Part shown: positions 13-50,500 of the stretch, in pieces
Layout: the number at the start of each line of letters is the position of its first letter
Position numbering within the stretch: the first letter of the stretch is position 1
From: Alphaproteobacteria bacterium
GTDB lineage: Bacteria; Pseudomonadota; Alphaproteobacteria; Bin95
Reading direction: 5' to 3'
Length of the DNA: 64,000 nt
NCBI GenBank assembly: GCA_965205265.1
Contig: CBDBGH010000003.1
Coordinates: forward strand, 5,280,001-5,344,000
Notes under the pieces: model-generated
The model's input: only the letters and a program-made list of their open reading frames with translations
Database searches by the model: none
Told to the model about the DNA's origin: nothing
Position numbers and translations under genes: made by a program

Positions 13-201
13 CCTTCAATGGTGGAGCGGGCGTGAAGCCCGCTGAAACGCCCCCATCATGGTGACGGAGCTGGATGCTCATCGTCCGCCTTCAATGTGT
101 GGAGCGGGCCCGAGGCCCGCTGAAACACTGCGCTGCCAGCGGGGCTCGTTTCAAGATCACGCCCCTTCAATGGGTGGAGCGGGCGCGAGACCCGCTGAAA
201 C
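13..201 (-). CRISPR. CRISPR-like array, 3 visible degenerate repeats (may continue beyond window start)
   Basis: CCTTCAATG(N3-4)GAGCGGGC-loop-(G/A)CCCGCTGAAAC at 13-49, 89-126 and 164-201, with unique spacers of 39 and 37 nt. Minus strand reads GTTTCAGCGGG...CATTGAAGG, resembling ATTGAAG-ending type I-G-like repeats. Confidence 0.8.
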
Positions 202-262
202 ACCCTCCGGCCTCCCAACCCCTTGGCGGGCAAAGGTTGACGGGGCGGTTTTCGAGCGGTCC
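202..262 (-). promoter_or_regulatory. putative CRISPR leader
   Basis: AACCCCTTG (217-225) and TTTTCGAGCGGT (249-260). The same motifs lie at a similar distance from the last repeat of the large array (15695-15738). Confidence 0.6.
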
Positions 263-661
263 CCGCGGTTTTGGTATCGCCGAACCGGTCGAAACGGACT
301 GGCGGTTCGATAGCGGCCGGCAGGCATCACGCATCACCACTGCCAGCGGCACCCGGCCAGGCCACAACGGAGGATCGACAATGTCAAAACAGCCACCGGG
401 CAAGCCGGAGGCTCCAGCATAGCGCCACCGAGCGCAAATACACATGGACCGTGGTCGGGATCCGCTTCACGCGGGAGGAACGCCGAAGGGTCGGTGGCTG
501 GATAGACGGACCGCGGCTGGCCGTCCGTCGGCTTGGCGTTGCACAAGGGGTTGGCCGAAGGGTCTTGCAAAGACCCGAACGGCCCTGGGGCTTTGGGTTT
601 TCAGCGGCATCGGAGACAATCCTTCCCCTGGGCCATTTGCGGTGCTGGAGAGAGGGCCTGG

Positions 662-1270
662 ATGCCGGATTTTGCAATCGTTTCCGAACAGGATCTGCGC
701 GAATGGCTTGCCGCGGGCGGAGACCCGAACGAGAGAAATTCGCGCGGGACGTCTGCTCTGGCCCGGGCGGCCGTGAGGGATAATACAGCTGCTGTGCGAT
801 TGTTGCTCGACGCCGGCGCGGATCCGAACGCCCGGGGCTGGAAGAACGAGACGGCGCTGATGAGGGCGGCCGTCAACGGGCATCTCGAGGTCATGGCGAT
901 GCTGCTCGAGGCCGGGGCGGACAGCGGCGCGGTCGAGGAGGAATGGGGGGATACGGCCCTGCACAGGGCAGTCCTCGGCGAACATCCGGCCGCGGTGGAC
1001 GTCCTGCTTTCGGCCGGCGCGGACGCGGAAGCCCGCGACAATGGCGGACATACCCCCCTGCACAGGGCCGCGGAACGGGGCGATGGCGGGATGATCCAGG
1101 CGCTGCTGGGATATGGCGTCAGGCCGGACCCGTCCAACGATGAGGGCAGAACGCCGGAAGACATGGCCAGGGCGGGCGGATATCCGGTGGCGGCGGAGAT
1201 GCTGGTCGCCGCCACCCGGCCGGAGCGGCCCGGGGAGACGGGCGGCCTGCCCGAGCCGGGGCGGACATAG
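662..1270 (+). CDS. ankyrin repeat protein
   Basis: Repeated TALxxAA / LLxAGADPN / TPLHRAA motifs. Start taken at MPDF, matching the paralogs. Confidence 0.9.
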   Translation: MPDFAIVSEQDLREWLAAGGDPNERNSRGTSALARAAVRDNTAAVRLLLDAGADPNARGWKNETALMRAAVNGHLEVMAMLLEAGADSGAVEEEWGDTALHRAVLGEHPAAVDVLLSAGADAEARDNGGHTPLHRAAERGDGGMIQALLGYGVRPDPSNDEGRTPEDMARAGGYPVAAEMLVAATRPERPGETGGLPEPGRT

Positions 1271-1366
1271 CGCCTTCGGACGGCGGCATTTTCACGGATA
1301 TGCTTTAGCATCTTGGCCGACCATGGGCATATGAATGGCCCGGTGCCGGGAAGAAGGGTTTGACCG

Positions 1367-2383
1367 ATGGCGACACGCTGTGTGATTTGCGCGAACCGGC
1401 TGGATGGAGGCCGTCCGCAGGTGAACTTCATCCACTACGATGGCTATCCGGACAACAACGGCGTCGGCGAACGCCTGTTGAGGCACTATTCGACGCCAGG
1501 GGCTGTCGAGGAACTGGTCGGGCTGGGAGACCTCGTTGCCCTGGGAAACACGCCGGGCGAATGCGAACGGCGGGAACCAGCCGGGTCCCGCTTGTTCCCG
1601 GCCGAGCGGCACGGCGGTGAGCCCTTGGGGACAACGCTGCTCCGTGCTGTCGAACACGCCTTCGATGTGGAATGGGCCTATCTCTTCGACGGCGAGCGCT
1701 GGGAGTGTATGGCAGGTCCGGCCCGCGCCGCGGAGTGGCGCGGTGTGCCGGTCGACGAGACAGTGCGGCGCCTGAAGATCTGGGACAGGTTCCCCTTCGA
1801 CCGATTCGAGACTCTCGAGGCGGGGAAGGTGCCGGACGCGGTCGAAGGGCTCCGGGCGACCGCCGCCGACACCGGCGAACTCGACAATCCCTGGTGGTTC
1901 CGTCATGCCGTGGGACTTGCGGCGTACGGAAACAATCGCGAGGGCCTGAAAGCCCTGCTGGACATGGCGGCGGAATTCGACCCGGTCGCAAAGGGCGCGG
2001 ACAGGAGGCTTGCAAGCCACGCGCTGTGTTGGGCCGTCGAGTCGCCGCGGTCGGAGGAGGCCACGGTGCAATTGCTGCTGGATGCCGGGGCGGATCCCAA
2101 CGCATCCAGGGGGAAGGGTCGGCCATCGGTCCTGCACAGGGCGCTTGACTGGGGCTATATGCTCAAGGAGGGAGTGGTCCTTCGCCTGGTCGAGGCTGGC
2201 GCCGATGCCGCCGCGCCGGATGACTGGAAGGCGAGAACGGCTCTGGAGCGAATGCTGCATCTGGACGGCAAGGGTCTGGAGGACCGGCAGACGCCGATCA
2301 ACCTGAAGGAGGCGATCACGGCAGCCGAAAGGCAAGTCGGGCGCCAGACCGAAAGTGACCTGCCGTCGCCCGCGCCATCCTGA
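1367..2383 (+). CDS. hypothetical N-terminal domain (HYDGYP motif) fused to C-terminal ankyrin repeats
   Basis: N-terminal MATR...IHYDGYP...EWAYLFDGERW; C-terminal LLLDAGADPNA and LVEAGADA ankyrin-like repeats. Confidence 0.75.
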   Translation: MATRCVICANRLDGGRPQVNFIHYDGYPDNNGVGERLLRHYSTPGAVEELVGLGDLVALGNTPGECERREPAGSRLFPAERHGGEPLGTTLLRAVEHAFDVEWAYLFDGERWECMAGPARAAEWRGVPVDETVRRLKIWDRFPFDRFETLEAGKVPDAVEGLRATAADTGELDNPWWFRHAVGLAAYGNNREGLKALLDMAAEFDPVAKGADRRLASHALCWAVESPRSEEATVQLLLDAGADPNASRGKGRPSVLHRALDWGYMLKEGVVLRLVEAGADAAAPDDWKARTALERMLHLDGKGLEDRQTPINLKEAITAAERQVGRQTESDLPSPAPS

Positions 2384-2422
2384 GGGGGCGTCAGGCGCCC
2401 GGGCCGGGCACAGGGATAGACA

Positions 2423-3355
2423 GTGGAGGGCAGTTTCGTGGACCAGACGGGGATGACACGGTTCAGGAGCGCCACGGCAGAGGATGTCCGGGCGATGCTC
2501 GCGGACGAACTGGCGGAGGATATAGACCGGGAGGACGGGTTCTGGATGACGGCCTCCCTCTATGCGGCCAATACGGGAAACAATGCCGCCCTGAAAACAC
2601 TTCTCGACGCCGGCGCCGATCCGAACCATTGCGGCGGTCCGCCAATGCAACCGATTCTGCATTTCGCTGCCGGCTCGAAGGAGGCGGATGCGGAGACCGT
2701 GACCCTGCTTCTCGAAGCCGGTGCCGATCCGGACGCACCCGGCGGGAGCCTCGCTACAACGGCCCTTCAGGAGGTGCTGTCCCGGACCGATGAGGGGCCG
2801 ACCTCGGAGATCGCGCTAAAGCTGCTGGAGCATGGCGCATCCTGCGACCGGGGCGAGGGGTACCGGCATGTGTCACCGCCGCTGGGCCTCGCGGTCCGCT
2901 ACAACCGCGATCCCGCGGTCATCCGGGCCCTTCTCGACCGCGGGGCGGACCCCGACACGGTCGGCGGCAGGTCACACGCGCCGGCGCTGCACGACGCTCT
3001 TCGGGAAAGAAGGGAAGACGAACTCACGGCTGAAATCGTCGATATTCTCCTGGCTGCAGGCGCCGACCCGAACAGCAGGGACAAGGCGGACGCGCTGCTT
3101 GCGGCGGGCGCGGATGCGACCATCACCGACCAGGCGGGCAGGACTGCCCTGCACTATGCGTGCGAGTCCCCGCACAGGGGAGACGGGATGATCCGCCTGC
3201 TGGTGAAAACCGGTCTCAATCCGCTTGAGCGGGACGGCCAGGGCATGACAGCGATGGAGCTGGCTATCGAGGCCGAATGGCCGGAGAGCACCATGGCGAT
3301 GTTGGGCAGGGCCATGGGCCGTGAGGCGGACGCCGCGGCCGGACCGACGATGTAA
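2423..3355 (+). CDS. ankyrin repeat protein
   Basis: Multiple LLxAGADPN/D repeats and GRTALHYA. Start may be ATG 2453. Confidence 0.9.
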   Translation: MEGSFVDQTGMTRFRSATAEDVRAMLADELAEDIDREDGFWMTASLYAANTGNNAALKTLLDAGADPNHCGGPPMQPILHFAAGSKEADAETVTLLLEAGADPDAPGGSLATTALQEVLSRTDEGPTSEIALKLLEHGASCDRGEGYRHVSPPLGLAVRYNRDPAVIRALLDRGADPDTVGGRSHAPALHDALRERREDELTAEIVDILLAAGADPNSRDKADALLAAGADATITDQAGRTALHYACESPHRGDGMIRLLVKTGLNPLERDGQGMTAMELAIEAEWPESTMAMLGRAMGREADAAAGPTM

Positions 3356-4373: not shown

Positions 4374-5688
4374 CATTGCCGTGTATCGTATCCAGTTCGG
4401 CCGCATGAGCGAGGTCTTCACGCACCGTCAGGTGGTATTCCGGCTTCTGCCGGGCCGCCGGTCCGTTTGGCGGCGTCTGGAGCGGGTTCTGGAGGCGCAG
4501 CGGCAGTTGTACAACGCCGCCCTTCAGGAACGCTGCGACGCCTGGCATCTGGCCGGGCGGTCGCTCTCCTATATCGACCAGGCGAAGAGCCTGACGGTGT
4601 GCCGCCGGGAGGACCCCGAGATGGCGGCCGTTCCGGTCGCCGTGCAGCGCGGGACGCTGAAGCGCCTGGACGAGGCGATGAAGGGCTTCTTCCGGCGGGT
4701 GAAGGCGGGCCAGAAGCCGGGTTTTCCCCGGTTCCGGTCCCGCCGGCGGTTCGACAGCCTCTCCTTCGTCTCGGGGGTGAGGCTGGAGGACCGGGCCCGG
4801 CCCGGCGCGGACTGCGGGTCCGGCGCGGCCTGCCTGCGCCTTCCGGGTTTCGGCCCGCTTGCGGTCCGCCAGCGGGGCGGCAACCCGCATGGGGATGGCG
4901 AGCCGGTCTCGGCGGTGCTGAAGCGCGAGGCCGGCAAGTGGTACGCCGTGGTCTGCTACCGGGTCCCGGCGCCGGCGGTCCACGAGGATGACGACAGCGT
5001 CATCGGGGTGGACATGAACGCTGGCCAGGTGGCGGCGAGCGGTCCGGGGCCGGAAGCCCGCCTGTTCCATGCCCCGGATACGCGGCGGCTGGAGGCGAGG
5101 GCGAAGCGCCTTGCCCGGCGTCTGGCGCGCCAGAAGCGCGGCTCCGGGCGCCGGGAGCGCACCCGCGCCCGTCTGGCGAAGACGAGGCGGCGCCTTTCCG
5201 GGATGCGGTGCGACTGGCGCCACCATGTCTCGCGGACAGTCGCCGACGCCGCCCATACCGTCGCCGTCGAGGACCTCCGGGTCCGGAACATGACGCGCAG
5301 CGCCCGGGGCACGACAGAGGAGCCGGGCGCCCGGGTCCGGCAGAAGGCCGGGCTCAACCGCGTCATCCTGGCCACGGGATGGGCGGAACTGCGCTTCATG
5401 TTCGGCTACAAGGCGGGACGGCTGCTCGCGGTCGACCCGGCCCATACCAGCCGGACCTGCGCCGCCTGCGGCCATGTCGATGCCGGCTCGCGGCGTTCGC
5501 GGGCCGAATTCCAGTGCACGGCCTGCGGCCATGCGGACCATGCCGACGCGAATGCCGGCAGCAACATCCGGCGTCGGGGACTGGCGCTGCTGCACGGGGA
5601 GGGGCGTTCCGGCTTGCGGACCCCTGCGATCCGTGAAAACGCAGGGATGCTGGCGGCATGACGCCGTCAACTCATCTTTGTAAGGCCC
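4352..5688 (+). mobile_element. non-autonomous tnpB element with TIRs and 8-bp TSD, copy 1 (1337 bp)
   Basis: Left end GGGGCTTACAAAGGTAAGTTGAC; right end reverse complement GGGCCTTACAAAGATGAGTTGAC (20/23 identical). TTCTACGA duplicated at 4344-4351 and 5689-5696. Confidence 0.92.
4381..5661 (+). CDS. tnpB: RNA-guided endonuclease TnpB
   Basis: N-terminal LYNAAL, GFPRF(R/K)S, RuvC-I IGVDMN, RuvC-II VAVEDL, Zn ribbon CAACG...CTACG, RuvC-III HADANA; D/E/D triad intact. Confidence 0.95.
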   Translation: MYRIQFGRMSEVFTHRQVVFRLLPGRRSVWRRLERVLEAQRQLYNAALQERCDAWHLAGRSLSYIDQAKSLTVCRREDPEMAAVPVAVQRGTLKRLDEAMKGFFRRVKAGQKPGFPRFRSRRRFDSLSFVSGVRLEDRARPGADCGSGAACLRLPGFGPLAVRQRGGNPHGDGEPVSAVLKREAGKWYAVVCYRVPAPAVHEDDDSVIGVDMNAGQVAASGPGPEARLFHAPDTRRLEARAKRLARRLARQKRGSGRRERTRARLAKTRRRLSGMRCDWRHHVSRTVADAAHTVAVEDLRVRNMTRSARGTTEEPGARVRQKAGLNRVILATGWAELRFMFGYKAGRLLAVDPAHTSRTCAACGHVDAGSRRSRAEFQCTACGHADHADANAGSNIRRRGLALLHGEGRSGLRTPAIRENAGMLAA

Positions 5689-10788: not shown

Positions 10789-12166
10789 TCTGAAGCTGCC
10801 CGAGAACAGGCGCAACGATGACGAGGCATTCTACGACGCCCTCCTTCATGGAATCCGCCATGATCCGGAGTTCCGGAAAGATTTCGAGCTGCGGTTCGTG
10901 TCGTCGAAGAAGAAGAAGGACAGGGAAAAGTCCTTCGTGAACCGGTCCCTGCTCTGGCTACAGCGAAGCTATCCCGATCTTTACGACTATGCCGACCGGT
11001 GGAGCAGCGTGCCGGCCGGCGTCTTCCCGAAGGACACGCCGGCCGGAGAGTTGTGGCAGCTTGTCCTGCAGACGCTGTCCGAGATCGAGGCGGAGCGCGG
11101 GCAGCTGGTCGTAAACGCGGAGGACATCTGGAAGCAAAGCCGGATGAACTTCCTTGAAGTGCTTCAAGGCATTGAGACCCCGAGCCTGACGGGAATCGGC
11201 GCGATCGAACAGGCCGCGGCCCTGTTCCTCGAGGCCGGCGGGACATGGAAGAAGGTCGCGGCCGAGACCGAACGGCAGCGGGGAGCGGTCCGCGACGTGC
11301 TCCGGGAGGCGGGAGACCTCGAGGGCGTCGCCGACGTGCTCGCCCGACTTCCGACCCTGGATTCAGCCCGGGTCGCCCGGTTGCATGAGGAGGCCGAGGA
11401 CGTCCGCGGCCTGCTGACCGGATTGCGCGAGTGCGGGAAACGAATTGCGGAAAAGGCGTCATCCTTCGACCGCCTGCGGCGGGAGGAGGAGGCCTGGTCG
11501 CGTCTGGCGCCCCAGGCCGCAGCCCTCGCTGCGCTCGAAGAGGAAAGAAAGGTCGGTGACGAGGCCGTGGCGGCGGCCATAAGCCGAATGGCGGCCGTCC
11601 TGGACCTGTCCGCTGCGGGCATGGAGGCGCGGGCGGAACCGGTTCATGGTTCCGCAAAGCGCGGGAAGCGGAACGCCCGGGCCCCGGCCCCGGAAGCGGT
11701 CGACACGGAGTCGGAGTGTCGGGAGGAAGGGGAGCCGGAGAGCGCGCTGCCCGGCGCATGGAGCGATTTGAACGCCTGGTGCAGCGAGCATCTCAAGGGA
11801 CGGCTGGCATTGTCGCCGCGCGCGCGGAACTCGATGAAGAAAGCGCTGTATCAGGATGTGGGGACGGCCGCCCGTTGCCTGCTGTGGCTCGCCGGCGCCT
11901 ATCGCCGGTCCCGTCTCGAGGGCTGCGGGGAGGGCGTCCAGGGAGCGGTCCCGGGTCTTGCGGGGCTTCACAATGAACGCTGTGGCGGGGATGCCTTCGA
12001 ATTCGCATGGTCGGGGCGTCGCCCGGTCGCTGACTGGCATGTCAAGGGTGGGGGCAACAGCCGCGATCCGGCCCGCTGCCTGAGGATCTACTATTGCTGG
12101 GACGACGCGTCCGGCATGGTTCTGGTCGGGGACATGCCCGGACATGTGAGGAGCCGGGCGACATGA
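10789..12166 (+). pseudogene. 3' part of IS21-interrupted coiled-coil protein with C-terminal RelE-like motif
   Basis: Helical middle region; C-terminal HVKGGGNSRDPARCLRIYYCWD...VGDMPGH. Confidence 0.65.
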
Positions 12167-12387
12167 GCGGCGCCCGGCCCGCTGCTCCCGGGGCTGAGCG
12201 GGATGGTGGCCGGCGGACGCACGGGCATGTCTGGGAAGAGACCGTGCATAACCGGCGCACAGGGGCCCGGGAGCGTCAGTGCGGCATTTGCGGCGCAATC
12301 CAGTGTTGGTCCCCGGAACAGAACGCCTGGTCGTGGGAGGTTATGCCGTGGGATGAGTTCGGCTTGCGGCTCCTGGACAGGAGCTGA
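12163..12387 (+). CDS. small hypothetical protein
   Basis: ATGA overlap with the upstream stop; H.W...CxxC motif. Confidence 0.4.
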   Translation: MSGARPAAPGAERDGGRRTHGHVWEETVHNRRTGARERQCGICGAIQCWSPEQNAWSWEVMPWDEFGLRLLDRS

Positions 12388-12406
12388 AGCGAATGAGCGG
12401 CCTCCG

Positions 12407-12616
12407 TCAGCCGGCCGCCAGCTGTATGTCTTCAATCTCTTCGAGTTTCATGGGTCCCCTGTCGGCAGGCCAGTCGATTTCTTCCGCGTTGAACACCTTC
12501 ACGGCAAGCACCCTGGTTCCGTCCTTCAGCCTGACATCGACCACCTGGTAGCCCATAGCGGTTTCCGGCAGGCCGCACAGATGCCGGGTCCAGTGATCGG
12601 GAAGAGGCAGTCTCAT
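12407..12616 (-). CDS. small hypothetical protein (LPETxMGYQ motif)
   Basis: 69-aa ORF with natural composition, divergent from ssrA. Confidence 0.6.
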   Translation of the reverse strand: MRLPLPDHWTRHLCGLPETAMGYQVVDVRLKDGTRVLAVKVFNAEEIDWPADRGPMKLEEIEDIQLAAG

Positions 12617-12675
12617 GGTTGTTGAAGGAGACATCCCGATGCACCTTGTCCTCTGGACAACCGGGCGAAGGAGCC

Positions 12676-12703
12676 TTGCCAAGCAGCCGCAGGAACCTAT
12701 AAT
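12676..12703 (+). promoter_or_regulatory. sigma70-type promoter of ssrA
   Basis: TTGCCA-N16-TATAAT directly upstream of the tmRNA. Confidence 0.65.
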
Positions 12704-12708
12704 GGAAA

Positions 12709-12970
12709 GCGCTGGATTTATCCAGCTATGGCGATAAACGCTGTGCGGAATAAGCGTTGCGGACCCGGGGGCAGTACCCGGCGCCTCCACCATTTCCTTC
12801 GGGGGCGAAACAGGATCGACGTGCGCGGTAAAGGCACTGTCTTCGCCCGGCATGGTACCACCGTTATCGGGCCGACCACACAGGTGCGAACGACAATCAG
12901 GAATTCGCCCTCGCTGCCGCCTAGACGCGGCAAGCGCGGTCTGGAGGGCACCGGGCAACAGAAGCCCTCC
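12709..12970 (+). ncRNA. ssrA: permuted (two-piece) tmRNA
   Basis: Acceptor piece GGACCCGGGGGCAGTACCCGGCGCCTCCACCA ends at 12792. After an 8-nt intervening segment the coding piece starts GGGGGCGAAACAGGATCGAC at 12801. Tag ANDNQEFALAAA* at 12886-12924. Outer ends approximate. Confidence 0.93.
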
Positions 12971-13119
12971 GTATTCCTGCCGCAGGCGGCATGAGGCTGT
13001 CATTTTGTCTTTGCAAGACTCGAGTGAAACACGATGACCGGCAAGCGGGAACGCTGGCCAGCTTGCTTTCGATAAAGGACATCGCTGCCGAACGGCAGGG
13101 ACCCTCGCAGCCAAAACTG

Positions 13120-15683
13120 CCTTCAATGGAGTGGCGGGCGGGGAGCCCGCTGAAACCCGGACGCCATCCAGGGCGAAAACGCCCCGCTCACATTCCTTCT
13201 CAATGATAGTGTAATGCGGGGGATGGGACGTTCTGCCGGGAGAATCCCGATGCCCCGAATTATGTTCGGCGTTGTCCGCCGGACTCCGCGCCGTCGGGGT
13301 CTGTCACCTTCAATGTGATGTGCCGCGGCCTACGGGGCGGAGCAGGAGCTGGTTGGCGGGCACGCGTCCGCAGAAGAGCTTCCTTCAATGTGGCCTCCGC
13401 CGCCCGGGCCGGCGAGGCGCGGATCTATCAACCTCCAGTTCTGCCGGTTGATGGTTCTTCAATGGGAACGGCCTCCGGTGCCCAAGGCCGGGGAGTGGAT
13501 ATTCCGCGGAACATGCCGGACTGGGAACCTCGCCCTTGATGTGTGCCCCGGCAGTGAAGCCGGGGAAAAGGCGGACAATCGGAACCCGAACGGAGAATGC
13601 GTGGGTCCTTCAATGTGCCCCGGCGCCAACGCCGGGGAGAGGCGCGACCAGGTCGCGCGGGTCACTCTGAGCCGCCTTCCTTCAATGGTGTGCCCCGGCG
13701 CCAACGCCGGGGAGAGGGGACAAGACCATGACAACGTCCAGCCTTCACCAGCACCTTCAATGTGTGTGGCCCTTGCCGACCGGGGCCGGAGGGATCGGAC
13801 AGGATCCGGGCATGGGGCGGGTGGGAGACCGGCCCTTCAAACAAAGGGGGATTGATCGCGATGAGCCGGAGCGGTCATGGGGAAAGCGGGCCATGAACCC
13901 GCTGCAACTGATGCCGCCGACGATGCCGAACGCCAAAATGACCTCTCTTCAATGGGTGGGGGGAAGCGAGCAGGACGCCCGCTGCAGGTCCCTGCCCTGC
14001 AACCCGTTAGCGGTTTCGCTACGGAGATCGACGCGTTCCCGGCGGAGCTGATTGTCCTTCAATAGGAAAAGCTGACGAGATATCTGCTGCAGGGGCATCC
14101 TCGGGTGTACTTCTTGGCAGTAGATCCGGACGGGCCGCCGAGCCAGGTCCGGAAATCGGGATATTGCTGTCCGATCTGGGCGTCGCCCCTTCAATGTGGG
14201 ACGGACGTGATGCCCGCGCTGTGGCCATCCGGGTCCAATGCCAGGGGCGCCGGGCCTGGTGGCTCCTTCAATATGCGATGTCGGGTGAATTGCCCGCGGC
14301 ATCAAGGCTCGGCGTAGCCGTCAGGATCGGGCCTCCGCAAATCCTTGCATGCGATGTGGAGCGGGTGCTCAGGCCGCAGGGGTTGAAACGGGCCTGCAAG
14401 GCGCCCTGTGCAGCAAGGTCCGGGAATCCCGGCTTCCCTCTCATGGCGAAGCGATCAAATGCGCGCTCTTCAATGTTTGGCCCGTGGGCAGGAGGCCTGT
14501 TGTCCCGGCCGCAGCGCGATGGGCCAGACGCGGCGCATCCATCGCTTTGGATGGGGTCCGAAGCAGGAGCGGGCATCGCTGCCGGGTGCATGAGCCGGAA
14601 ACGGCTGTCATGCATGGCCAGATACCTTCAATGGGTGGAAGCGGGCGTGGAGCCCGCTGACGTGGCATCGGCCCGCTTCGGGGCAGCGTCCAAATCGACC
14701 CTTCAATGTGTGAGGCGGGGACGAAGCCCGCCTGTAAAACCGCCATCGCAAGGCGGGCTGCTTTGGCCAGACACAGCCTTCAATGTGTGTGGGGTGCGTG
14801 GAGCCGCCGCTCCTTGAAAAGATGGCCCATCCGGCCTCACTGCGTAACCCTTCAATGATGTGTGGCGGACGGCGGGCCCGCGCTTTAACCCCATACCTGC
14901 GGATGCTTCACGCTCGCTTTTGCTGGCACTTCAATGTGCACGGCGGGCACTGCGCCTGCTTTAACCGACTTCCCGAGAGCCTCTAGGACCTGACAAGCTT
15001 CAATGGTGTGTGCAGCGGCCAATGCGCCCACTGCCGGTTTCCGCTGCCGAAGCCAGAGGCGCCGAGGAGGATCCGGAGCCTCAATGGCGCTGCGGGCGCT
15101 TCGCCCGCTGTCGGACCCCGGTCGCGCCGGCCGCGACGCGCGTCATAAGCTCGCTTCAATGAGAGCTGCGGGCCCTGCGCCCGCTGCCGGCGTGGAACGG
15201 TGGGTGGAAAGGAGGGTAGGTATGCGGACCGCTTCAATGGTGCTGCGGGCGCTGAGAGCAGGCAGGCTGTTATCCGCACTTTCCCATGCTTCAATGTGTG
15301 CTGCGGGCCCAGGGCCCGCCGCCGGAATTCTCTCGTACCTTACCGTGGGTGGGCCAATCGATGCTTCAATGTGCTGCGGCACTACGCGCGCTGCGGGGCA
15401 AGCCCTACGTGCTGAGATCAGTGCATGTGATGAGCTTCAATGTGTGCCCGCTGCCGGGGTTACTCGATACATCACGTCAAGCACTCTGTCGGTCGCTTCA
15501 ATGTGCTGCGGGCGATGGGCCCGCTGCCGGGCTGCGTTTCCTCGGGGAAGGAGGACTCCAGCCACTCGCTTCAATGTGGGGAGCTGCGGGCCCTGCGCCC
15601 GCTGCCGGTTGGCCTGCTGGTGCCGCTACCCGGCCTAGGCGGATAGCTTCAATGTGTGCGGCGGGCTCTGTGCCCGCTGCCGG
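13120..15683 (-). CRISPR. long, highly degenerate CRISPR-like array (~33 units), no cas genes in window
   Basis: 26 exact CTTCAAT motifs (e.g. 13121, 13308, 13383, 13457, 13608, 13680, 13755, 14626, 14701, 14778, 14850, 14929, 14998, 15154, 15232, 15364, 15435, 15496, 15569, 15647) plus ~7 variants. Mostly 69-79 bp apart, most followed by a GC hairpin and a unique spacer. Confidence 0.8.
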
Positions 15684-15845
15684 GGCCGCCGGGGAACCCC
15701 TTGCTGGACAAGGGCTGCGGAACCGTTTTTCGAGCGGTGCTGCCGAAGAGCGCCGGCGCTGTCCCGAAATCGGGTCCAGGAGTTGGCCGGAAGCGCCGCA
15801 AGGCCTTGCCACCCCTCGCCTTCCGGGATTTCGAGCGCCCCCGGG
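15684..15845 (-). promoter_or_regulatory. putative CRISPR leader
   Basis: AACCCCTTG (15695) and TTTTTCGAGCGGT (15726), shared with 217-260. Confidence 0.6.
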
Positions 15846-16145
15846 GGTTTCCATGTGCTGCCGGGCCGCTCGGAAACGGCCGGCGGGGACCGGACGCGAC
15901 CCATCGCGCGCGGTCAATGGGACCGGGGCGCTGTCGGCCCCGGAGAAAAGCCGGCATTGCCGCGCGGTGCGGACAGGCGTGGAGCGCCTGCCGCCGACGC
16001 GGAACGCCGACGCTGGTCATCGTGCCCACCATGTGAAACAGCAACAGCAGCTGGCCCCGTCGGGCAGCGCCATGAACAGTTTACCACACGCGCACCTGGG
16101 CGCGGACGGCAAACCGCTTTGTCCTGCCTCTCCGGGCGGGAGAGG

Positions 16146-16499
16146 CTACTCCTCTTGTTCGCCGGCGTCCGGGGCGCTTTCGGCCGCCTCGCCGGCCTCC
16201 GCGCCCGTCTTGTCATTGCCGGCGTTGTCGTCCCCGTCTGCGGGGAGCGTTTCGCCGGCATCGGCGCCCTCCCCTGCCCCGTCGCCCGGCGGGCCGATGC
16301 GCACCTCTCCGGGTTGGGGTTCGGCATATTCCTCTAGGAACATGTCGATCGCCTTGCGGACCACTTGGATCCGAGTCGGCCGGTGACGGCCGAGCACGGT
16401 GTGCGTGGTTATCCTGTCGATGAACCGGTCGAGTTGGTCCGTCTTTTCGGGGGACAGCTTGAAAGTGATGTTGGCCCCTGCAGTCTTGGCCTCCGGCAC
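16146..16499 (-). CDS. putative ribbon-helix-helix (CopG-like) regulator with acidic tail
   Basis: ITFKLS...QLDRF...TRIQVVRKAIDMFL; GTG start with GGAGG RBS. Confidence 0.6.
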   Translation of the reverse strand: MPEAKTAGANITFKLSPEKTDQLDRFIDRITTHTVLGRHRPTRIQVVRKAIDMFLEEYAEPQPGEVRIGPPGDGAGEGADAGETLPADGDDNAGNDKTGAEAGEAAESAPDAGEQEE

Positions 16500-17205
16500 C
16501 GGCGCCTCCTGGTTCGTGCGGTGTTGCTGTGCGCCTCCGGGTCCGGGCGGAACCGGGGGCGGGTCCATGCCCAGGCATTATAGGCTGCATCCCGTTCTAT
16601 GGCAAGTCCTTGTGCCGGTGCATGGCCTCGCACAGATGGCACCGACCCTGGCGATAAAGGCAGTGATGTCGCATGAGTGGGGCACATGCAAACACCATAG
16701 ACGCCGCGCGTACTGCAAGACGCGCCAACAGGGTGTTTACATGGATTACATGTCCGTATGTTCCGCACCGGAAAAACAAGACGCGAGAATGTCAGTTCCT
16801 GCGAAGTTTTTGCAGCGGGGTGTCAAGGAGTGGAAGAACTGACTAGTGTAGTAAACCCAGAACCGGATATATGTCGCTCCACGAGCTGGACACACAAGAA
16901 ACCAGACAGGCTGCATAGCAAGACGAGGAGTATAAGGAGGTTGCGTGAGAGTGAGGGATATAAAAGAGTGGCAAACACAAGACGGGGTGTAGGGAGTGTT
17001 GACGGTGCGGACATGGCCGATATGGTCTGGAAGCAGGCAATCAGCGGAAAAATGACCGCCAGGGAACGCCGTACAACGCGATTCCGAGGACATAACGTAA
17101 TCGTCCCAGAGGAGCAGGGAAGGGGCCGTGCGGCGGCGCGGGAACCGCCCACCCGACAGTGTTGCTTCCTCGCGGGCTTTTGCGGCTGTAAGGACGGCGG
17201 CGCCT

Positions 17206-17533
17206 TCATGTCCCGGCAGGCCCGCCATGCAGATCCTCCGGAACTGTGTCTTCAATCCTGGATATGACGCCCTTCTCCTCGACCGTAACGGACTCCAGCG
17301 TTATGCCGGCGTCCGCAGCGGCCGCGCCGAGCGTCGGGAATCTTTCCCTGCCGACGGCCCGATGTCGGTCGTCGCTTCCCGAAGGGTAGTGGTACAACGT
17401 GAATTCCGTTGCGCCGTCTTCCGGCGGTCCGCTCAAGGAGTAACCCGACGCATAATCGCCCTCCGCGACCGCCTGCTTGGCGGGCCATTGGGCGAACCAG
17501 GTTCCGACACCTATATACTCGAAGTGCATCATG
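17206..17533 (-). CDS. hypothetical protein
   Basis: GAGG RBS upstream of MMHFEY; coding-like composition. Confidence 0.5.
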
Positions 17534-17622
17534 TCGTACCTCTCTTCCTCCCTATTCGGCAGGACCGTCATTGTAAACGGCGGCCGTGAAAGGGCAAAAG
17601 GCAAGGAGTACTTGCCGGAGCC

Positions 17623-18139
17623 TTACGGCTCCGGTGCGTCTCCTGTCAGACGATCCTCAAGCAATTCCAGGACAGCCGTCCGAAATGGGTGTCGACTCGC
17701 GTCCCGCCTCGCGACATGCAAGGGGGTCACACCGGAATGGTTGGCCGCCAGCGGATCGGCGCCGGCAGCCAACAGCAACTTCATCAGTTCCGGCCCGCCC
17801 TCGGAAACGACGCCAAGCAGCGGCGTGCTTCCCTCCTCATTCTTCGGATCCGGCTCCGCTCCGGCCTCCAGAAGCAAGCGGACGGCATCGGTGCGGTCGT
17901 CCATGGTTGCCTTGAAGGCCGCGAGATGCAGCGGGGCATAGCCGAGCCTGTCCGGCCGGTTCAAATCGGCGCCGGCCTCGATCAACACGGCCATGACCCC
18001 GGCATTGCCTGCATCGGCAGCGTCGTGCAGGGGGTGTCCGCGCCGGGTTTCCGCGCCGGGTTTCCGCCATGACATCGCCGCCCTGGGCAAGCCAGTCGCG
18101 GGCCTCGGCGGCGTCGGCTTTTCGGAAATCCGGTTGCAT
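17623..18139 (-). pseudogene. ankyrin repeat gene frameshifted by a 13-bp tandem duplication
   Basis: MQPDFRKA start after an AGAAGGA RBS. CCGCGCCGGGTTT is duplicated at 18038-18063; removing one copy restores a 167-aa ankyrin ORF. Confidence 0.8.
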
Positions 18140-18308
18140 GAATGTCCTTCTCCTGTGATGTGCGATCCCGCCATCGTAACCCGCAGACCTGAAAGGCCGA
18201 AAGCCAGAGCAGGGGGTGCCGGAACGCGGTTCGGGAGTTGCTATGGATAAGGGTGCAGTGCCCGGGAAGGCAGAAGGAACCAGCGATAAAGCTGGGTTCA
18301 GGCAAGGC

Positions 18309-26351: not shown

Positions 26352-27688
26352 GGGGCTTACAAAGGTAAGTTGACATTGCCGTGTATCGTATCCAGTTCGG
26401 CCGCATGAGCGAGGTCTTCACGCACCGTCAGGTGGTATTCCGGCTTCTGCCGGGCCGCCGGTCCGTTTGGCGGCGTCTGGAGCGGGTTCTGGAGGCGCAG
26501 CGGCAGTTGTACAACGCCGCCCTTCAGGAACGCTGCGACGCCTGGCGTCTGGCCGGGCGGTCGCTCTCCTATATCGACCAGGCGAAGAGCCTGACGGTGT
26601 GCCGCCGGGAGGACCCCGAGATGGCGGCCGTTCCGGTCGCCGTGCAGCGCGGGACGCTGAAGCGCCTGGACGAGGCGATGAAGGGCTTCTTCCGGCGGGT
26701 GAAGGCGGGCCAGAAGCCGGGTTTTCCCCGGTTCCGGTCCCGCCGGCGGTTCGACAGCCTCTCCTTCGTCTCGGGGGTGAGGCTGGAGGACCGGGCCCGG
26801 CCCGGCGCGGACTGCGGGTCCGGCGCGGCCTGCCTGCGCCTTCCGGGTTTCGGCCCGCTTGCGGTCCGCCGGCGGGGCGGCAACCCGCATGGGGATGGCG
26901 AGCCGGTCTCGGCGGTGCTGAAGCGCGAGGCCGGCAAGTGGTACGCCGTGGTCTGCTACCGGGTCCCGGCGCCGGCGGTCCACGAGGATGACGACAGCGT
27001 CATCGGGGTGGACATGAACGCTGGCCAGGTGGCGGCGAGCGGTCCGGGGCCGGAAGCCCGCCTGTTCCATGCCCCGGATACGCGGCGGCTGGAGGCGAGG
27101 GCGAAGCGCCTTGCCCGGCGTCTGGCGCGCCAGAAGCGCGGCTCCGGGCGCCGGGAGCGCACCCGCGCCCGTCTGGCGAAGACGAGGCGGCGCCTTTCCG
27201 GGATGCGGTGCGACTGGCGCCACCATGTCTCGCGGACAGTCGCCGACGCCGCCCATACCGTCGCCGTCGAGGACCTCCGGGTCCGGAACATGACGCGCAG
27301 CGCCCGGGGCACGACAGAGGAGCCGGGCGCCCGGGTCCGGCAGAAGGCCGGGCTCAACCGCGTCATCCTGGCCACGGGATGGGCGGAACTGCGCTTCATG
27401 TTCGGCTACAAGGCGGGACGGCTGCTCGCGGTCGACCCGGCCCATACCAGCCGGACCTGCGCCGCCTGCGGCCATGTCGATGCCGGCTCGCGGCGTTCGC
27501 GGGCCGAATTCCAGTGCACGGCCTGCGGCCATGCGGACCATGCCGACGCGAATGCCGGCAGCAACATCCGGCGTCGGGGACTGGCGCTGCTGCACGGGGA
27601 GGGGCGTTCCGGCTTGCGGACCCCTGCGATCCGTGAAAACGCAGGGATGCTGGCGGCATGACGCCGTCAACTCATCTTTGTAAGGCCC
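26352..27688 (+). mobile_element. non-autonomous tnpB element with TIRs and 8-bp TSD, copy 2
   Basis: Same ends as copy 1; AAAGGAAA duplicated at 26344-26351 and 27689-27696; two substitutions seen versus copy 1. Confidence 0.92.
26381..27661 (+). CDS. tnpB: RNA-guided endonuclease TnpB
   Basis: Identical to 4381..5661 except H->R and Q->R; catalytic triad intact. Confidence 0.95.
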   Translation: MYRIQFGRMSEVFTHRQVVFRLLPGRRSVWRRLERVLEAQRQLYNAALQERCDAWRLAGRSLSYIDQAKSLTVCRREDPEMAAVPVAVQRGTLKRLDEAMKGFFRRVKAGQKPGFPRFRSRRRFDSLSFVSGVRLEDRARPGADCGSGAACLRLPGFGPLAVRRRGGNPHGDGEPVSAVLKREAGKWYAVVCYRVPAPAVHEDDDSVIGVDMNAGQVAASGPGPEARLFHAPDTRRLEARAKRLARRLARQKRGSGRRERTRARLAKTRRRLSGMRCDWRHHVSRTVADAAHTVAVEDLRVRNMTRSARGTTEEPGARVRQKAGLNRVILATGWAELRFMFGYKAGRLLAVDPAHTSRTCAACGHVDAGSRRSRAEFQCTACGHADHADANAGSNIRRRGLALLHGEGRSGLRTPAIRENAGMLAA

Positions 27689-28386: not shown

Positions 28387-28714
28387 CTGCAGCGGGCTCA
28401 CCGCCCGCAACACACATTGACGCGGATCGAGTGCGGCGAAGTCGGCAAGCTTCAACGCGACGAACCGCCTCCGGCTCTGCCGAGCGGAGTCGAGCGGTTC
28501 GATGGTTCAAGGGATCCTGCGGCCGCCCCAGGTCCCGGCAGGCGGAGGCAGACACTAGGTTGTCAGTCTGCTGTGCAATTGAAGGGTTTCGAAACCGGCG
28601 AGTGCCCGCAACCGGGCTTGCGCCATCACATTGAAGGACCGCTGTTCCGGATATTCCAATGCGGTCGCTGAAGAGCGGACAGGATGACTCCCTGTCCGCC
28701 TTGCACATTGAAGC
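28387..28714 (+). CRISPR. degenerate CRISPR-like mini-array (~4-5 units)
   Basis: Hairpin plus CACATTGACGC (~28423), GCAATTGAAGG (~28585), CACATTGAAGG (~28637) and GCACATTGAAGC (~28714). Confidence 0.5.
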
Positions 28715-29921: not shown

Positions 29922-29956
29922 ACCGGACCCCGCGGGACGCCCACACACATTGAAGC
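29922..29956 (+). repeat. solitary CRISPR-like repeat
   Basis: CCGGACCCCGCGGGACGCCCACACACATTGAAGC, with a leader-like CGCCCCGAAAATCCC just upstream. Confidence 0.45.
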
Positions 29957-37835: not shown

Positions 37836-38153
37836 ACCGCACCGCACCAAATCGCCCATCATTGAAGGTCGTTGGCTGCAGAGAAGAGCCACAGGACGTT
37901 GTCGGTCAGAGCGGGCCAATGCCCGCTCCGCATATTGAAGGGCAATCAATGAAGGTCCGCACCGGTGCCCGGCAAACATCCAGGCCCGCCCCGCCTTGGA
38001 GAGGCCTCCGGCTCCACTTGGATTTCCGCGCTCGGGACTGCCCTCGCAGCGCGGGGGCGCCACGGCCGACTGCGGCGGTCCGAGCTGAAGTCGTTAAGGG
38101 CGCAGCGTGAAAATCCCCTTCAATGTGCAGGCGGCTGAACCGCCGCCCGGACC
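37836..38153. repeat. cluster of solitary CRISPR-like repeats in both orientations
   Basis: CATTGAAGG at ~37860; GCGGGCCAATGCCCGCTCCGCATATTGAAGG at 37911-37941; CCTTCAATGTGCAGGCGGCTGAACCGCC at ~38118. Confidence 0.5.
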
Positions 38154-38488
38154 GGGCGGGATGGCATAGGTGCCCGATTGCTCGCAGTGCGCCGTGAGCC
38201 GGACGCCATCGATCAATGAGCTGGAACGGCGCGGCGCCGCTCCGTGAATTCGCCGGCGCTGCCCGGACACCGGCACTGTCTCTCGCCAACCTGTCACACA
38301 GCACGGGAGCCCAGGCTCCGTGCAACGCATGTTGCCCGGTATAGGTGTCGGCTTCAACCGCTTGGCAAAGGTTCCTCCAACAACTCCGGAAAGCCGGCCC
38401 GGAGACCGGTGTCCCGTGCCGTGTCCGGTTGCATCGGGGGGTGTCACGTCCGAGTGGCTGCCCGCTAAGCGGGTCGGGCCTTCCAGGT

Positions 38489-47544: not shown

Positions 47545-50500
47545 ATGACGAACATTGCAAGCGTCGTTGCGATGCGCGGCCTCCTGCGGCGGCTGTCCGG
47601 GCGGGGTGAGGACGTGACCGCCTCACGCGCGCGCGACCTTCGTACCCCCCCCCCGAGGATTCAGCATCCGGGCGCGGGGCTGATCCGGTGGGCGCCCCCG
47701 GGAGACCTGCCCGCCGCCTGAGCGCGGCTCTTCTCGCCGTTCTGTTCTCACTGCTGACGCTGGCCGCCGCCCTCGCGCCATCAGACGCACAGGCGCAGAC
47801 GCCTGTGGCACCGGTTTTGAGCGCCACGGCAGGCGACGGGCAGGTCACGCTCTCCTAGACGCCCGACAGTAATAATAATTTTCCGCCTGGCATAGGCACC
47901 ACTTTTGCGAGATGGATTTATCAAAAAAAGGAAGGCAGCAGCGACTTCGACAACACTTGGACTCCCATGGGCACCGTCAGGGCAACCACGACTTACACGG
48001 TGACAGGGCTGATAAACGGCACCGCCTACACATTCAGGATGCGAGCATCCTACTCAGGGCCGAGCGGCGGTGCTTCCTCATCTAACTCCAACGAAGTCAC
48101 CGCCACCCCGATGGCGCCGGTCGTTCCGGTTCTCATCTCCGACCCTGACAAGAGCGTGACGCTGCCGTCCGGCCAGAACACGGTGGTGGTGTGCTACAAC
48201 CTCCAGGCGGTCTCGTATGACGGCACGACCTATCTGGAAACGCGCGGCGGCGGCCGGACCGCCGTGCCTGCGCACAGTTCGCTCAGCGATGCCACCAACG
48301 GCGTCGAGATCACGGCCGCGCCGACGGGCATCACCACCGGGCGCAACGTCAACCTCAGTCCCTGCGCCAGCCTCGGGGTCGGCACGCACACGGTCACCTG
48401 GGAATGGAACGGTCCCGACGGCACCGCCCCGAAGGGGACGACCTCGACCACGTTCACGGTCGTCGAAGCCCCGAGCACGAAAACTCTCACGCTGTCGGCG
48501 ACTTCGACCCGGATCACCGAGGGGAATTCCGGCCACACGGACGTCACCGTCACCATCACGCTCGGCGAGCCGGCGCCCGAGGACTTCACGGCCCTGATCT
48601 CCGCTGCCGGCGATCCGGGCACGGCGACGGAACCCACGAAATCGCAGGACGCCTGCGAGCCGCCGCTGCAACCGGCGGATACGGATTGGTGCTTTCTGTT
48701 GGACAGCGCCGCCGTCGCCATTGCCGAGGGCGAGACCGAGGGAACCGTCAAGATCCGGATTCTCGGCGATACCCGGGACGAAAGCAACGAGACCGTCATC
48801 CTGCATGTTTCCTCCGAGGAGCCGGGCTGGACCCGGGATGCCACCCTCACGCTGACCATCGTCGACGACGACGGGGTCACCAGCCCCGCTGCCCCGCCCG
48901 GCCTCAGGGCTTCGGCGGGCGACCGGCAGGTGACGTTGAACTGGAACGACCCGAACGACGCGACCATCACCGGCTACAAGCTGATCTACGCCAAGACAGG
49001 TGACAGGGGCAGCGCGAGCTGGGCCCCGGTCCCCGGTTCCGGCATCCGCACCCTGACCTACACGGTGAGGAACCTCGACAACGACGCCGAGTACAGCTTC
49101 AGGGTGCGGGCGGTGAACAGCGCCGGCGACGGGACGGCCACGACCTGGGTGACGGCGACGCCGACCGGCGGGGTCACCTGCCCGACGGCACAGCCGCCGA
49201 CGGCTCTGTCGGTCACGCCGGGTTCTGACCGACTGTCCCTGACCTGGACCGCCCCGACCCAGGCCAAGCGGAACGGCTGGCAGCTGCAATACCGCAAGAC
49301 GGGGGGAAGCTGGACCGCGGTCACGATCCCGAGCGCCGGCGCGACCAGCTACACGATCGGCGGACTGGAGGCCGGCACGGCCTATCAGGTGCGGCTTCAG
49401 GCCACGGTCGGCGTCCAGGGCGCCAACTGTCCCGCCAGCGCCTTCGCAACCGCCGCCGGCACAACGACGGGGAGCGTCTCCACCACGCCCACCACCTCCA
49501 CCCCCATCTACACCCCGCCCCCCGGCACGCCGCGGGCGGATGCCGGGTCGGAGATCGAGGCCGCGCCGGGGGCGCGGGTAAGGCTGGACGGTTCGGGGAG
49601 TACGGACCCGGACGGGGGCGAACTGAGGTATTCCTGGAGGCAGGTGCTGGGGTGGAGCGGTATCTACAGGACGGCGGTGGAACTCGAGGGCGCGGACACG
49701 GCGCGCCCGTCGTTCACGGCGCCGGCCGGGCCGTACACCCTGGACATCCTGGTGTTCCGCCTCACGGTGACGGACCCGGAGGGGAAGACCGACACGGCCT
49801 CGGTGTGGGTGAAGGTGGGCGATGCGGCGCCGGTGTTCGGCGATGCGTCGGTGACGGCGCTGGAGCTGGCCGAAGGCGCGGCGATGGCGGCGGTGACGCT
49901 GCCCGAGGCGACCGGCGGCAACGGGACGCTCAGCTACACCCTGACCTCGGCGCCGAGGGGCCTGGCGGGCCTCGCCTTCGACCCGTCGACGCGGCAGCTT
50001 TCGGGCACGCCGTTGGAGGGCGGCAGCTGGACGTTCACGTACCGGGCAGACGATGCCGACAGCAACCGGACGGAGGCGGATGCGGCGGTCCTGACCTTCA
50101 CGGTGACGGTGCGCGACGAGGCGCCGACGTTCGGCGATGCGTCGGTGGCGGCGCTGGCGCTGGCCGGGGACGAGGCGATGACGGCGGTGACGCTGCCCGA
50201 GGCGACCGGGGGCAACGGGGTGCTCACCTACACCCTGACCTCGGCGCCGACGGGCCTGGCGGGCCTCGCGTTCGACCCGGCGGCGCGGCGTCTCTCGGGC
50301 ACGCCGTCGGAGGGCGGCCGCTGGACGTTCACCTGGCGGGCGGACGACGCGGATTCGAACCGGACCGAGGCGGACGCGGCGATCCTGACCTTCACGGTGA
50401 CGGTGCGCGACGAGACGCCGACTTTCGGCGACGCGTCGGTGGCGGCGCTGGATCTGGCCCCGGGCGCGGCGATGACGGCGGTGACCCTGCCCGAGGCGAC

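Follow-up and report, generated by a model that had tools for sequence, protein, structure and literature searches.

We describe here a CRISPR (clustered regularly interspaced short palindromic repeat) array in which all repeats that retain an exact handle differ from one another. The array is located at positions 13120..15683 on the minus strand of a 64,000-nucleotide stretch of DNA (hereafter ‘the window’) from an alphaproteobacterium of the Bin95 lineage (GenBank assembly GCA_965205265.1, contig CBDBGH010000003.1, positions 5,280,001 to 5,344,000), and it comprises ~33 spacer-repeat units recognized by handle motif counts, unit spacing and a covariance model. This stretch is a genuine CRISPR array that is read from the minus strand, is distant from cas genes (an orphan array), and belongs to the type I-G/III-B family. 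With some reserve, we favour the view that it is one of several old orphan arrays whose tag and hairpin are still constrained and which are predicted to be served in trans by Cas proteins encoded elsewhere in the genome. On the evidence of sequence comparisons, this suggests that RNAs can remain usable even when the repeats they carry are not identical.

Repeat anatomy and sequence reliability

Read in the minus-strand sense, each ~75-bp unit begins with a spacer and ends with a repeat. The repeat is built in order of a flank of 4-6 nt, a GC stem of 6-8 bp, a loop of 3-8 nt, a linker of 2-15 nt that is rich in C and A, and a handle formed by ATTGAAG plus one variable base. The motif CTTCAATG occurs 33 times in the window versus 1.07 copies expected, a count reached by none of 100 shuffles, and 24 of the 33 copies are located on the plus strand within 13121-15654. 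The 7-mer CTTCAAT, which is the plus-strand form of the handle core, is present 26 times in the array at spacings of 57-202 nt, mostly 69-79. Given that the long gaps between exact handles contain approximately seven more units, each with one to three changes in the handle, the total comes to ~33. A covariance model trained on 14 well-formed units yielded 28 full-length minus-strand matches inside 13120-15683 when matches were kept at E <= 1.1. The base just before the handle is C in all but two of the 26 exact-handle units, and across all 26 the eighth handle base is G (13), C (9), A (3) or T (1).

The youngest, leader-proximal repeat is found at 15646..15683 (42 bits by the covariance model). 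At the opposite end, the trailer-most repeat (13120..13156, 47.1 bits) is well formed and resembles the repeats of another array at window positions 13-205. Two repeats are truncated, one lacking the 3′ arm of the hairpin (15434..15462) and the other lacking the 5′ arm (15231..15257). The trailer half (13160..14620) exhibits irregular spacing (110-202) and weaker hairpins, and includes most of the approximately seven units with decayed handles; one further such unit is located outside it at 15078-15113. All of these features are on the minus strand. A preliminary description of this DNA, made from the letters alone, had proposed ~33 CRISPR-like units of ~75 bp, read from the minus strand, that keep a common handle, hairpin and period, and the handle counts, the model matches and a folding test described below all agree with that proposal.

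The same description claimed that repeat identity is not kept, even next to the leader, and this also proved correct. All 26 of the 38-mers that end in an exact handle are distinct, the leader-proximal repeats differ from one another, and the array thus falls short of the near-identity by which CRISPR repeats are usually recognized. Whole repeat bodies (everything before the handle) share a mean identity of 57%, which rises to 61% for adjacent units, compared with a spacer-versus-spacer baseline of 49%. Identity is 54% in the trailer half and 62% in the leader half. The three blocks of repeat types that had been named are likewise present.

Sequencing or consensus error, which had been put forward as a possible refutation, is a negligible explanation for this diversity. 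Contigs assembled from public runs of two studies, X1 and X3 from one and X4 from the other, span 12764-16400 with no differing letters and no gaps (those of X4 do so in pieces), and the contig from a fourth run, X5, differs at a single base where the depth is 3.65. Moreover, there are uniform arrays elsewhere in the assembly.

The expectation that standard finders would likely miss this array is supported by two programs. Tandem Repeats Finder reported no row for it, and an Rfam search of positions 11000-18000 had a transfer-messenger RNA (tmRNA) gene as its sole match. Kilobase-sized arrays can therefore escape CRISPR finders that rely on repeat identity. A narrow literature search, which did not extend to supplements, turned up no arrays in which every repeat is different.

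Uneven divergence within the repeats

Two hairpin types are evident along the array, with stems that are CCCCGGCG-like (type P) or CAGCGGGC (type Q). A MAFFT alignment of 38 units places hairpins with 4-nt and 5-nt loops in different registers, and the covariance-model alignment presses P-type hairpins into the Q-type model and also takes in reverse-strand palindrome matches. We therefore counted only the 17 cleanly aligned units of the Q type when comparing the mean pairwise identity of repeat segments. The loop (0.31, with 16 of 17 loops distinct) and the 5′ flank (0.42) are saturated with changes, and theirs is the sole segment result that is free of row-selection bias; the eighth handle base stands at 0.32. 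Identity is far higher for the 5′ stem arm (0.83), the 3′ stem arm (0.74) and the handle core (0.98), but the 17 rows were chosen by a model containing the stem and handle, so that conservation there is partly row selection. Of the 119 stem cells in this set, 102 are paired. Divergence is thus not uniform, in keeping with the original claim that handle and hairpin are held while repeat identity is not.

The exact handle core is kept in 26 of ~33 units, even though it is an AT-rich sequence in a genome with 68% GC content, and 15 of those 26 units carry a perfect stem of at least 6 bp. In addition, when the 32 nucleotides that lead up to the handle are compared with the neighbouring spacer window, they give the better fold in 20 of 25 units (Wilcoxon p = 2e-4), and the same comparison over all arrays, with 66 units, gives p = 3e-10.

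Because the loops of neighbouring units are unrelated, any older unit must have been resident long enough for its neutral sites to saturate. Stems and handles that remain intact at least ten places from the leader, in units whose loops are saturated, imply that the interior repeats are constrained, and not only the repeat that serves as the template. We infer that this pattern of conserved and saturated segments reflects purifying selection on the RNA.

Repeats that lie farther apart in the array are only slightly less similar (Spearman -0.13, with 48 of 2000 permutations giving a value as low). We considered a simple ‘conveyor belt’, in which a single drifting template repeat would be the whole story, and rejected it on account of this weak positional trend.

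Leader, related arrays and cas genes of the host

The array is preceded by a leader (15684..15850, minus strand) whose geometry is the same as that of the leaders of cas-adjacent uniform arrays in the host genome (G000) and in two congeners (G011 and G016). It includes a palindrome of the form CCCTTG..CAAGGG (15697-15713) and two motifs, ACCGCTCGAAAAA (15727-15739) and GCGCTCGAAAT (15828-15839), which are located at ~-90 and ~-190 relative to where the first handle ends. Both are copies of the CGCTCGAAA motif. In the cas-adjacent arrays of G011 and G016 the leader motifs are found at -191 and -90, as in the studied array, and more distant I-G arrays carry a related GCGCTCGCAA motif at the same leader position. 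Within the host, a leader of the form ACCGCTCGAAA..CCTTG..CAAGG is common to four orphan arrays (A5059, A5227, A5280 and the studied array, where names give the position in kb on contig C3) and to the uniform, cas-adjacent array A3410. When the genome was scanned for the leader motif, 18 filtered matches were obtained, and the five that have a handle downstream are exactly these five arrays. A scan of 12900-16200 for sigma-70-like promoters returned no sites, but such a scan is uninformative for a GC-rich host.

Arrays or mini-arrays with the same handle and variable hairpins are found on C3 at 4943k, 5059k, 5137k, 5227k, 5280k, 5293k (the studied array), 5308k and 5317k. There are at least eight such orphans, of which at least four have an intact leader motif. 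They sit in or at the edge of a stretch at 4.75-5.30 Mb in which the GC content is at least one standard deviation under the mean in nine of eleven 50-kb intervals, and which also contains the second of two I-G modules described below. A5059 and A5227 each start, at the leader end, with two identical repeats, and thus the latest acquisitions there copied the repeat faithfully. Several relatives of the studied array are located in the window itself. A5280 (13..340, minus strand) consists of three units (13-205) and a leader with the same motif at ~250, a degenerate mini-array at 28387..28714 on the plus strand gives four model matches, and a solitary unit is present at 29927-29956. Further units are found within 37839..38241, two on the plus strand (37839-37941) and two on the minus strand (38117-38241).

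The closest cas module to the studied array is 240 kb away. Among the 20 window proteins that were scanned, none is a Cas protein and none matches a phage family; they are ankyrin-repeat proteins, IS605/TnpB, IS21 and IS66 transposases encoded by insertion sequences (ISs), nucleotidyltransferase/HEPN proteins, a glycosyltransferase, or proteins without an assignment. The label ‘Cas-less’ in the preliminary description is therefore apt locally, but it does not hold for the genome, which carries type III-B, two type I-G, type I-C and two type II-C systems.

Most relevant here is a composite locus at C3:3.394-3.4215 Mb, 1.9 Mb from the studied array, that combines III-B, Cas4g/Cas1g-Cas2 and I-G genes. 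Its order is cmr1-6 with a Csx1-like gene, Cas4g/Cas1g (752 bits), cas2, a uniform array, an IS630 copy, and csb2-cas7g-cas8g1(csx17)-cas3g. The uniform array (A3410, C3:3410126-3412530) directly follows cas2 and has 34 repeats, all but three of which are identical. It is located beside cmr1-6 and has the ATTGAAG tag in common with the studied array, where C is the eighth base in 9 of 26 units. The second of the two I-G modules (5.0448-5.0530 Mb) carries effector genes only. It encodes Cas3g, a 712-amino-acid (aa) protein that includes a Cas7g domain, and a Csb2 protein of 775 aa, but it is without cas1, cas2 and cas4; its cas3g gene is 6.4 kb from the leader of A5059. The genome thus has one full set and one effector-only set of I-G genes, consistent with the earlier guess that genes of this type might be present. 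In the 712-aa frame (L078 14178-16316; G000:C3:5048178-5050316, minus strand), the Cas7g domain corresponds to residues 374-546 and the N-terminal part of ~370 residues matches no known family; this protein may be a fused large subunit.

The suggestion that the array might serve several Cas6 variants found no support. Three Cas6 models (PF01881, PF10040 and TIGR01877) match nothing in the host genome, which is 98.98% complete, and TIGR01877 also has no match in five congeners. The sole Cas6-like domains in the genome are those of two diverged Csb2 paralogues (549 aa and 775 aa; 162 and 279 bits). Because no stand-alone Cas6 was found, Csb2 is the likely processing enzyme.

Several other features of the host CRISPR systems deserve mention. 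The I-C system has been broken in two by IS elements. One part (G000:C3:3243898-3254977) has cas3-cas5c-cas8c, cut short beside an IS copy, and two arrays, whereas the other (G000:C3:4041401-4050138) has a second cas3, cas7-cas1c-cas2, and two arrays, one of which is split by a gene for a 460-aa transposase. Spacer 6 of the uniform I-G/III-B array (3410501-3410535) has 28 bases identical to a spacer of a II-C array (3788607-3788634); the two systems remember the same target. Spacer 19 (3411449-3411484) matches the host’s own chromosome at 5102687-5102722 in 33 of 36 bases, at a site within the low-GC accessory stretch that may be a resident mobile element. The uniform array also duplicates spacers, one occurring three times in a row and another twice (C3:3412100-3412320 and 3411585-3411740). 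Finally, ~27 kb with cas9-cas1-cas2 and an array (C3:3772000-3802000) is mirrored at the contig end (5436000-5463552), and the copy of the array there is richer in repeats. The mirror image may be a genuine inverted duplication or else an artefact of assembly, the contamination figure of the assembly being 7.28%.

Elsewhere in the genus, uniform arrays with the canonical repeat are present in four genomes, and each of the three checked encodes Cas4g/Cas1g and Csb2. Arrays beside Csb2 homologues in five other organisms are uniform as well; their stems differ by organism but are perfectly complementary, and their linker is an invariant 4 nt. In contrast, the congener G010 has a 13-unit array that is as heterogeneous as the studied one, with two hairpin types interleaved. 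This genome is without Cas4g/Cas1g and Csb2, and its array has no recognizable leader. A fusion of reverse transcriptase and Cas1 (RT-Cas1), whose presence the preliminary description had proposed to check, is not encoded by the host; one of 676 aa is found in G010, where it adjoins type III RAMP-fusion genes of the TIGR03986 family (L103, G010:C1:576643-586118) on a contig other than that of the array.

The spacers of the studied array are unique in the genome and of normal size, most units being 69-79 bp. When 69 spacers were searched against the host genome, no spacer of an orphan array had a second copy or a self-target, and the only matches were chance ones of 16-21 nt. The preliminary description had called for a search for targets, and this produced one credible match. 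The spacer at 15400..15434 (minus strand) matches a gene of a mobile-looking element in the congener G014, beside tRNA-Cys, with three mismatches. The match does not extend beyond the spacer, runs antisense to the reading frame, has a 5′ flank of TTC, and reaches E = 4.7e-6 per genome among 41 genomes. Phage and plasmid collections gave two and eight hits respectively, all at E = 0.2-0.8 and taken as chance, with nothing at E < 0.2. Among 401 genomes of the class, a single 30-nt match (G034, E = 9e-5 per genome) is not significant when all 401 are considered.

Another spacer, at 13278-13307, matches an element of ~200 nt that occurs once in G010 and twice in G012, with a GTG flank. This element (L063 12350-12560, L064 7580-7790 and L065 7500-7710) is 77-78% identical between G010 and both G012 copies and ~84% identical between the two G012 copies, and it corresponds to no Rfam family.

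Among the neighbours of the array, the two-piece alphaproteobacterial tmRNA gene (ssrA, 12672..12972, plus strand; Rfam, 239.5 bits) ends 148 bp before the trailer end. The last 43 nt of this gene (window 12928-12970) recur inverted, with 42 of 43 bases matching, at G000:C3:4192816-4192858, which is 1.1 Mb away, and this copy looks like an island attachment site moved by a large inversion. Four ankyrin-repeat genes (533-3355 and 17623-18174), which are unusual CRISPR neighbours, adjoin the leaders of the two arrays that fall within the window’s first 18 kb. Other repeated sequences include an IS605-type TnpB gene with a Cas12f-like TNB domain, present in two copies (4381-5661 and 26381-27661), and a 294-bp unit that is repeated four times at 86% identity within a 1497-aa open reading frame (49808-50993). 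A repeated element of ~100 nt that starts with CCCGCCGAACCCCTCGAAACCCGG has dozens of sites on G000:C3, for example at 51850, 490661 and 520900.

Proposed function and competing explanations

We propose that the repeat and leader family belongs to the I-G adaptation module (Cas4g/Cas1g-Cas2) and, in this genus, would also feed the III-B Cmr complex. The array would have grown by ordinary acquisition at the leader end, and its transcription is predicted to run along the minus strand from the leader at 15684-15850. The 5′ flank, loop, linker and eighth handle base, as presumably unconstrained parts of the repeat, would have drifted to saturation with age. Purifying selection would have held both hairpin arms and the 7-nt tag core, with some units lost to truncation or handle decay. 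The precursor CRISPR RNA would be cut just before AUUGAAG by Csb2, the Cas5-Cas6 fusion of type I-G, and the resulting CRISPR RNAs (crRNAs) could be loaded in trans into I-G Cascade, of which the genome encodes two, and/or into the III-B Cmr complex, which is without a Cas6 of its own and depends on the 8-nt tag.

A study of Thioalkalivibrio describes a Csb2 protein that cuts 4 nt 3′ of a 7-bp stem, which leaves an 8-nt handle, and that stays on the hairpin, and it gives the type I-G protospacer-adjacent motif as TTN (PMC9638904). In a preprint, Csb2 is reported to be insensitive to the stem’s sequence, its size and its position (bioRxiv 10.1101/2022.08.19.504415), and this indifference would explain how repeat identity could be lost without loss of function. 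Sharing of arrays is reported for the orphan array CRISPR2 of Enterococcus faecalis, which is served in trans (PMC5491264), for a Marinomonas III-B system that uses I-F crRNAs (PMC5576922), and for Pyrococcus furiosus, whose arrays are shared by three effectors (PMC4436667).

The closest known counterpart is an I-G array shared with a III-B complex. The I-G arrays of Thioalkalivibrio, Geobacter and Bifidobacterium resemble the studied array in their repeat plan, in which a short flank and a GC hairpin of 7-8 bp are followed by an 8-nt handle, and in having units of ~72-75 bp. A GCGCTCG..AAA leader motif ~55 nt before the first repeat is also held in common, the host genome has I-G cas genes including Cas4g/Cas1g, and the TTC flank of the one protospacer fits TTN. 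The handle reads ATTGAAG+N in the studied array and ATTGAAGC in the uniform arrays of the genus. Unlike type I-G arrays, the studied array has no cas gene within 240 kb, its repeats are all unlike, the eighth base is variable, some units are truncated, and a linker of 3-11 nt replaces the fixed 4 nt. With the orphan arrays served in trans in E. faecalis, Marinomonas and P. furiosus, it shares its distance from cas genes and the presence of effectors that recognize the same tag, and as in crRNA-borrowing type III systems, a III-B system without its own Cas6 is located beside a type I system. However, the orphan repeats in those three cases are reportedly uniform and match a cas-linked array, whereas the repeats studied here have diverged nearly to randomness outside the stem and tag. 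Ordinary trailer-end degeneration usually affects only the last one or two repeats. The studied array resembles it in that older units are more decayed than younger ones, but here every unit differs, including those adjacent to the leader, the last repeat is intact, and the changes avoid the stem and handle.

A number of observations weigh against the reading that we favour. Some decay is undeniable, given that two repeats of the young half are truncated, approximately seven handles have decayed, and a perfect stem of at least 6 bp is missing from 11 of the 26 units with an exact handle. A further objection is the linker, which measures 3-11 nt in the 15 perfect-stem units and is never 4 nt under the perfect-stem parse, whereas the uniform cas-adjacent arrays that we have seen keep an invariant 4 nt of the form C[CT]TC. 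An enzyme measuring 4 nt from the stem would consequently give wrong handles for most units, and so either the conserved C|AUUGAAG sets the cut or most units yield faulty handles. We regard this as a weak point. Another is the alternation of the two hairpin types along the array (Q, then P, then Q), which is not explained by drift of one template repeat. Such alternation requires that arrays recombined or became mosaic in some other way, yet they have no spacer in common. In addition, the array was found in none of the 16 other genomes of the genus, only 1 of ~32 spacers has a credible target, and an orthologous array was found neither in 41 relatives nor in 37 genomes of the family and order.

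The main rival holds that the orphan arrays are unused and decaying leftovers of an I-G system that lost its adaptation genes, with the conserved handle and stems reflecting only how the repeats were made. We consider such a dead relic unlikely, although the truncation of some repeats, the loss of handles and the uneven spacing of the trailer half speak for it, and the violation of the 4-nt linker rule and the near absence of known targets fit it as well. So do the second I-G module, which is without cas1, cas2 and cas4, and the leaderless array of G010 in a genome that is without Cas4g/Cas1g and Csb2. This rival has difficulty, however, in accounting for units whose loops and flanks are saturated when their own stems and handle are not, and for an AT-rich handle that has remained exact in most units of a GC-rich genome. 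The oldest repeat is intact, both leader motifs stand at the distances seen in working arrays, and the G010 type III system with RT-Cas1 could itself use 8-nt tags. If the array were instead a mosaic for two enzymes, assembled by recombination between arrays, the P and Q hairpins would be cognate substrates of the two diverged Csb2 paralogues. That idea gains from the alternation of P and Q blocks here and their interleaving in G010, from sister arrays that are each mostly of one hairpin type, and from nearest relatives that can be non-adjacent repeats, such as those at 15154 and 15569. We nevertheless judge it improbable, since the lack of common spacers leaves no sign of a recent transfer of blocks, Csb2 is reported to be indifferent to the stem, and recombination offers no explanation for nearly every unit differing within a single type (16 of 17 loops).

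Two further explanations seem to us very improbable. In one of these, a mutational process takes the place of selection, whether error- or slippage-prone copying of the repeat at each acquisition, damage targeted to loops, or template switching at palindromes. Linkers do differ by gained or lost C or CA, loops vary in length from 3 to 8 nt, and the imprecise spacer-side integration reported for an I-G Cas4/1, with 60-70% at the correct site (PMC10504553), could vary the eighth base. Yet the array beside the only Cas4g/Cas1g of the genome is uniform, as are cas-adjacent I-G arrays in five other organisms and four congeners. The identical first two repeats of A5059 and of A5227 likewise fit poorly with the error-prone repeat synthesis offered as a candidate in the preliminary description, and template switching would keep the arms of a stem paired but not alike between units. 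The other, equally improbable explanation, also raised in the preliminary description, is a decoy or regulatory RNA array, such as a Racr-like anti-CRISPR, a CreA-like antitoxin or self-regulating crRNAs. Racr anti-CRISPRs and CreTA antitoxins are solitary or very short, are not known to have a leader, and are carried by phages or lie inside cas operons. The studied array has in common with them imperfect, repeat-like RNAs away from a standard array, and its setting would suit such a role, because the surrounding low-GC accessory stretch abounds in IS elements and defence-like genes and the neighbouring ssrA is a common insertion site of islands. What tells against it are the ~33 units with normal-size spacers and a full leader of the cas-adjacent, adaptation type, the spacer with a mobile-looking target and TTC flank, and the lack of spacer matches to the host beyond chance. 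Furthermore, the array is not within a cas operon, and no scanned window protein (0 of 20) matches a phage family.

A bolder version of the favoured view is that repeat identity is dispensable altogether. In that case only a generic GC hairpin, C|AUUGAAG and the ~75-nt period would be kept, the tag sequence would set the cut, the orphans would still feed III-B and two I-G Cascades, and acquisition would continue at leaders with an unmatched first repeat. We hold this version to be doubtful.

If its RNAs are not made, then the studied array would be a well-preserved fossil in an IS-ridden defence region. If, however, they are made and used, the array would constitute a natural mutagenesis experiment, with ~30 different repeats in one transcript. 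It would then show which parts of I-G/III-B repeats are needed for cutting and loading (the tag and some hairpin) and which are dispensable (the stem sequence, the loop and the linker length). That question bears on how far orphan arrays should count as working immune memory.

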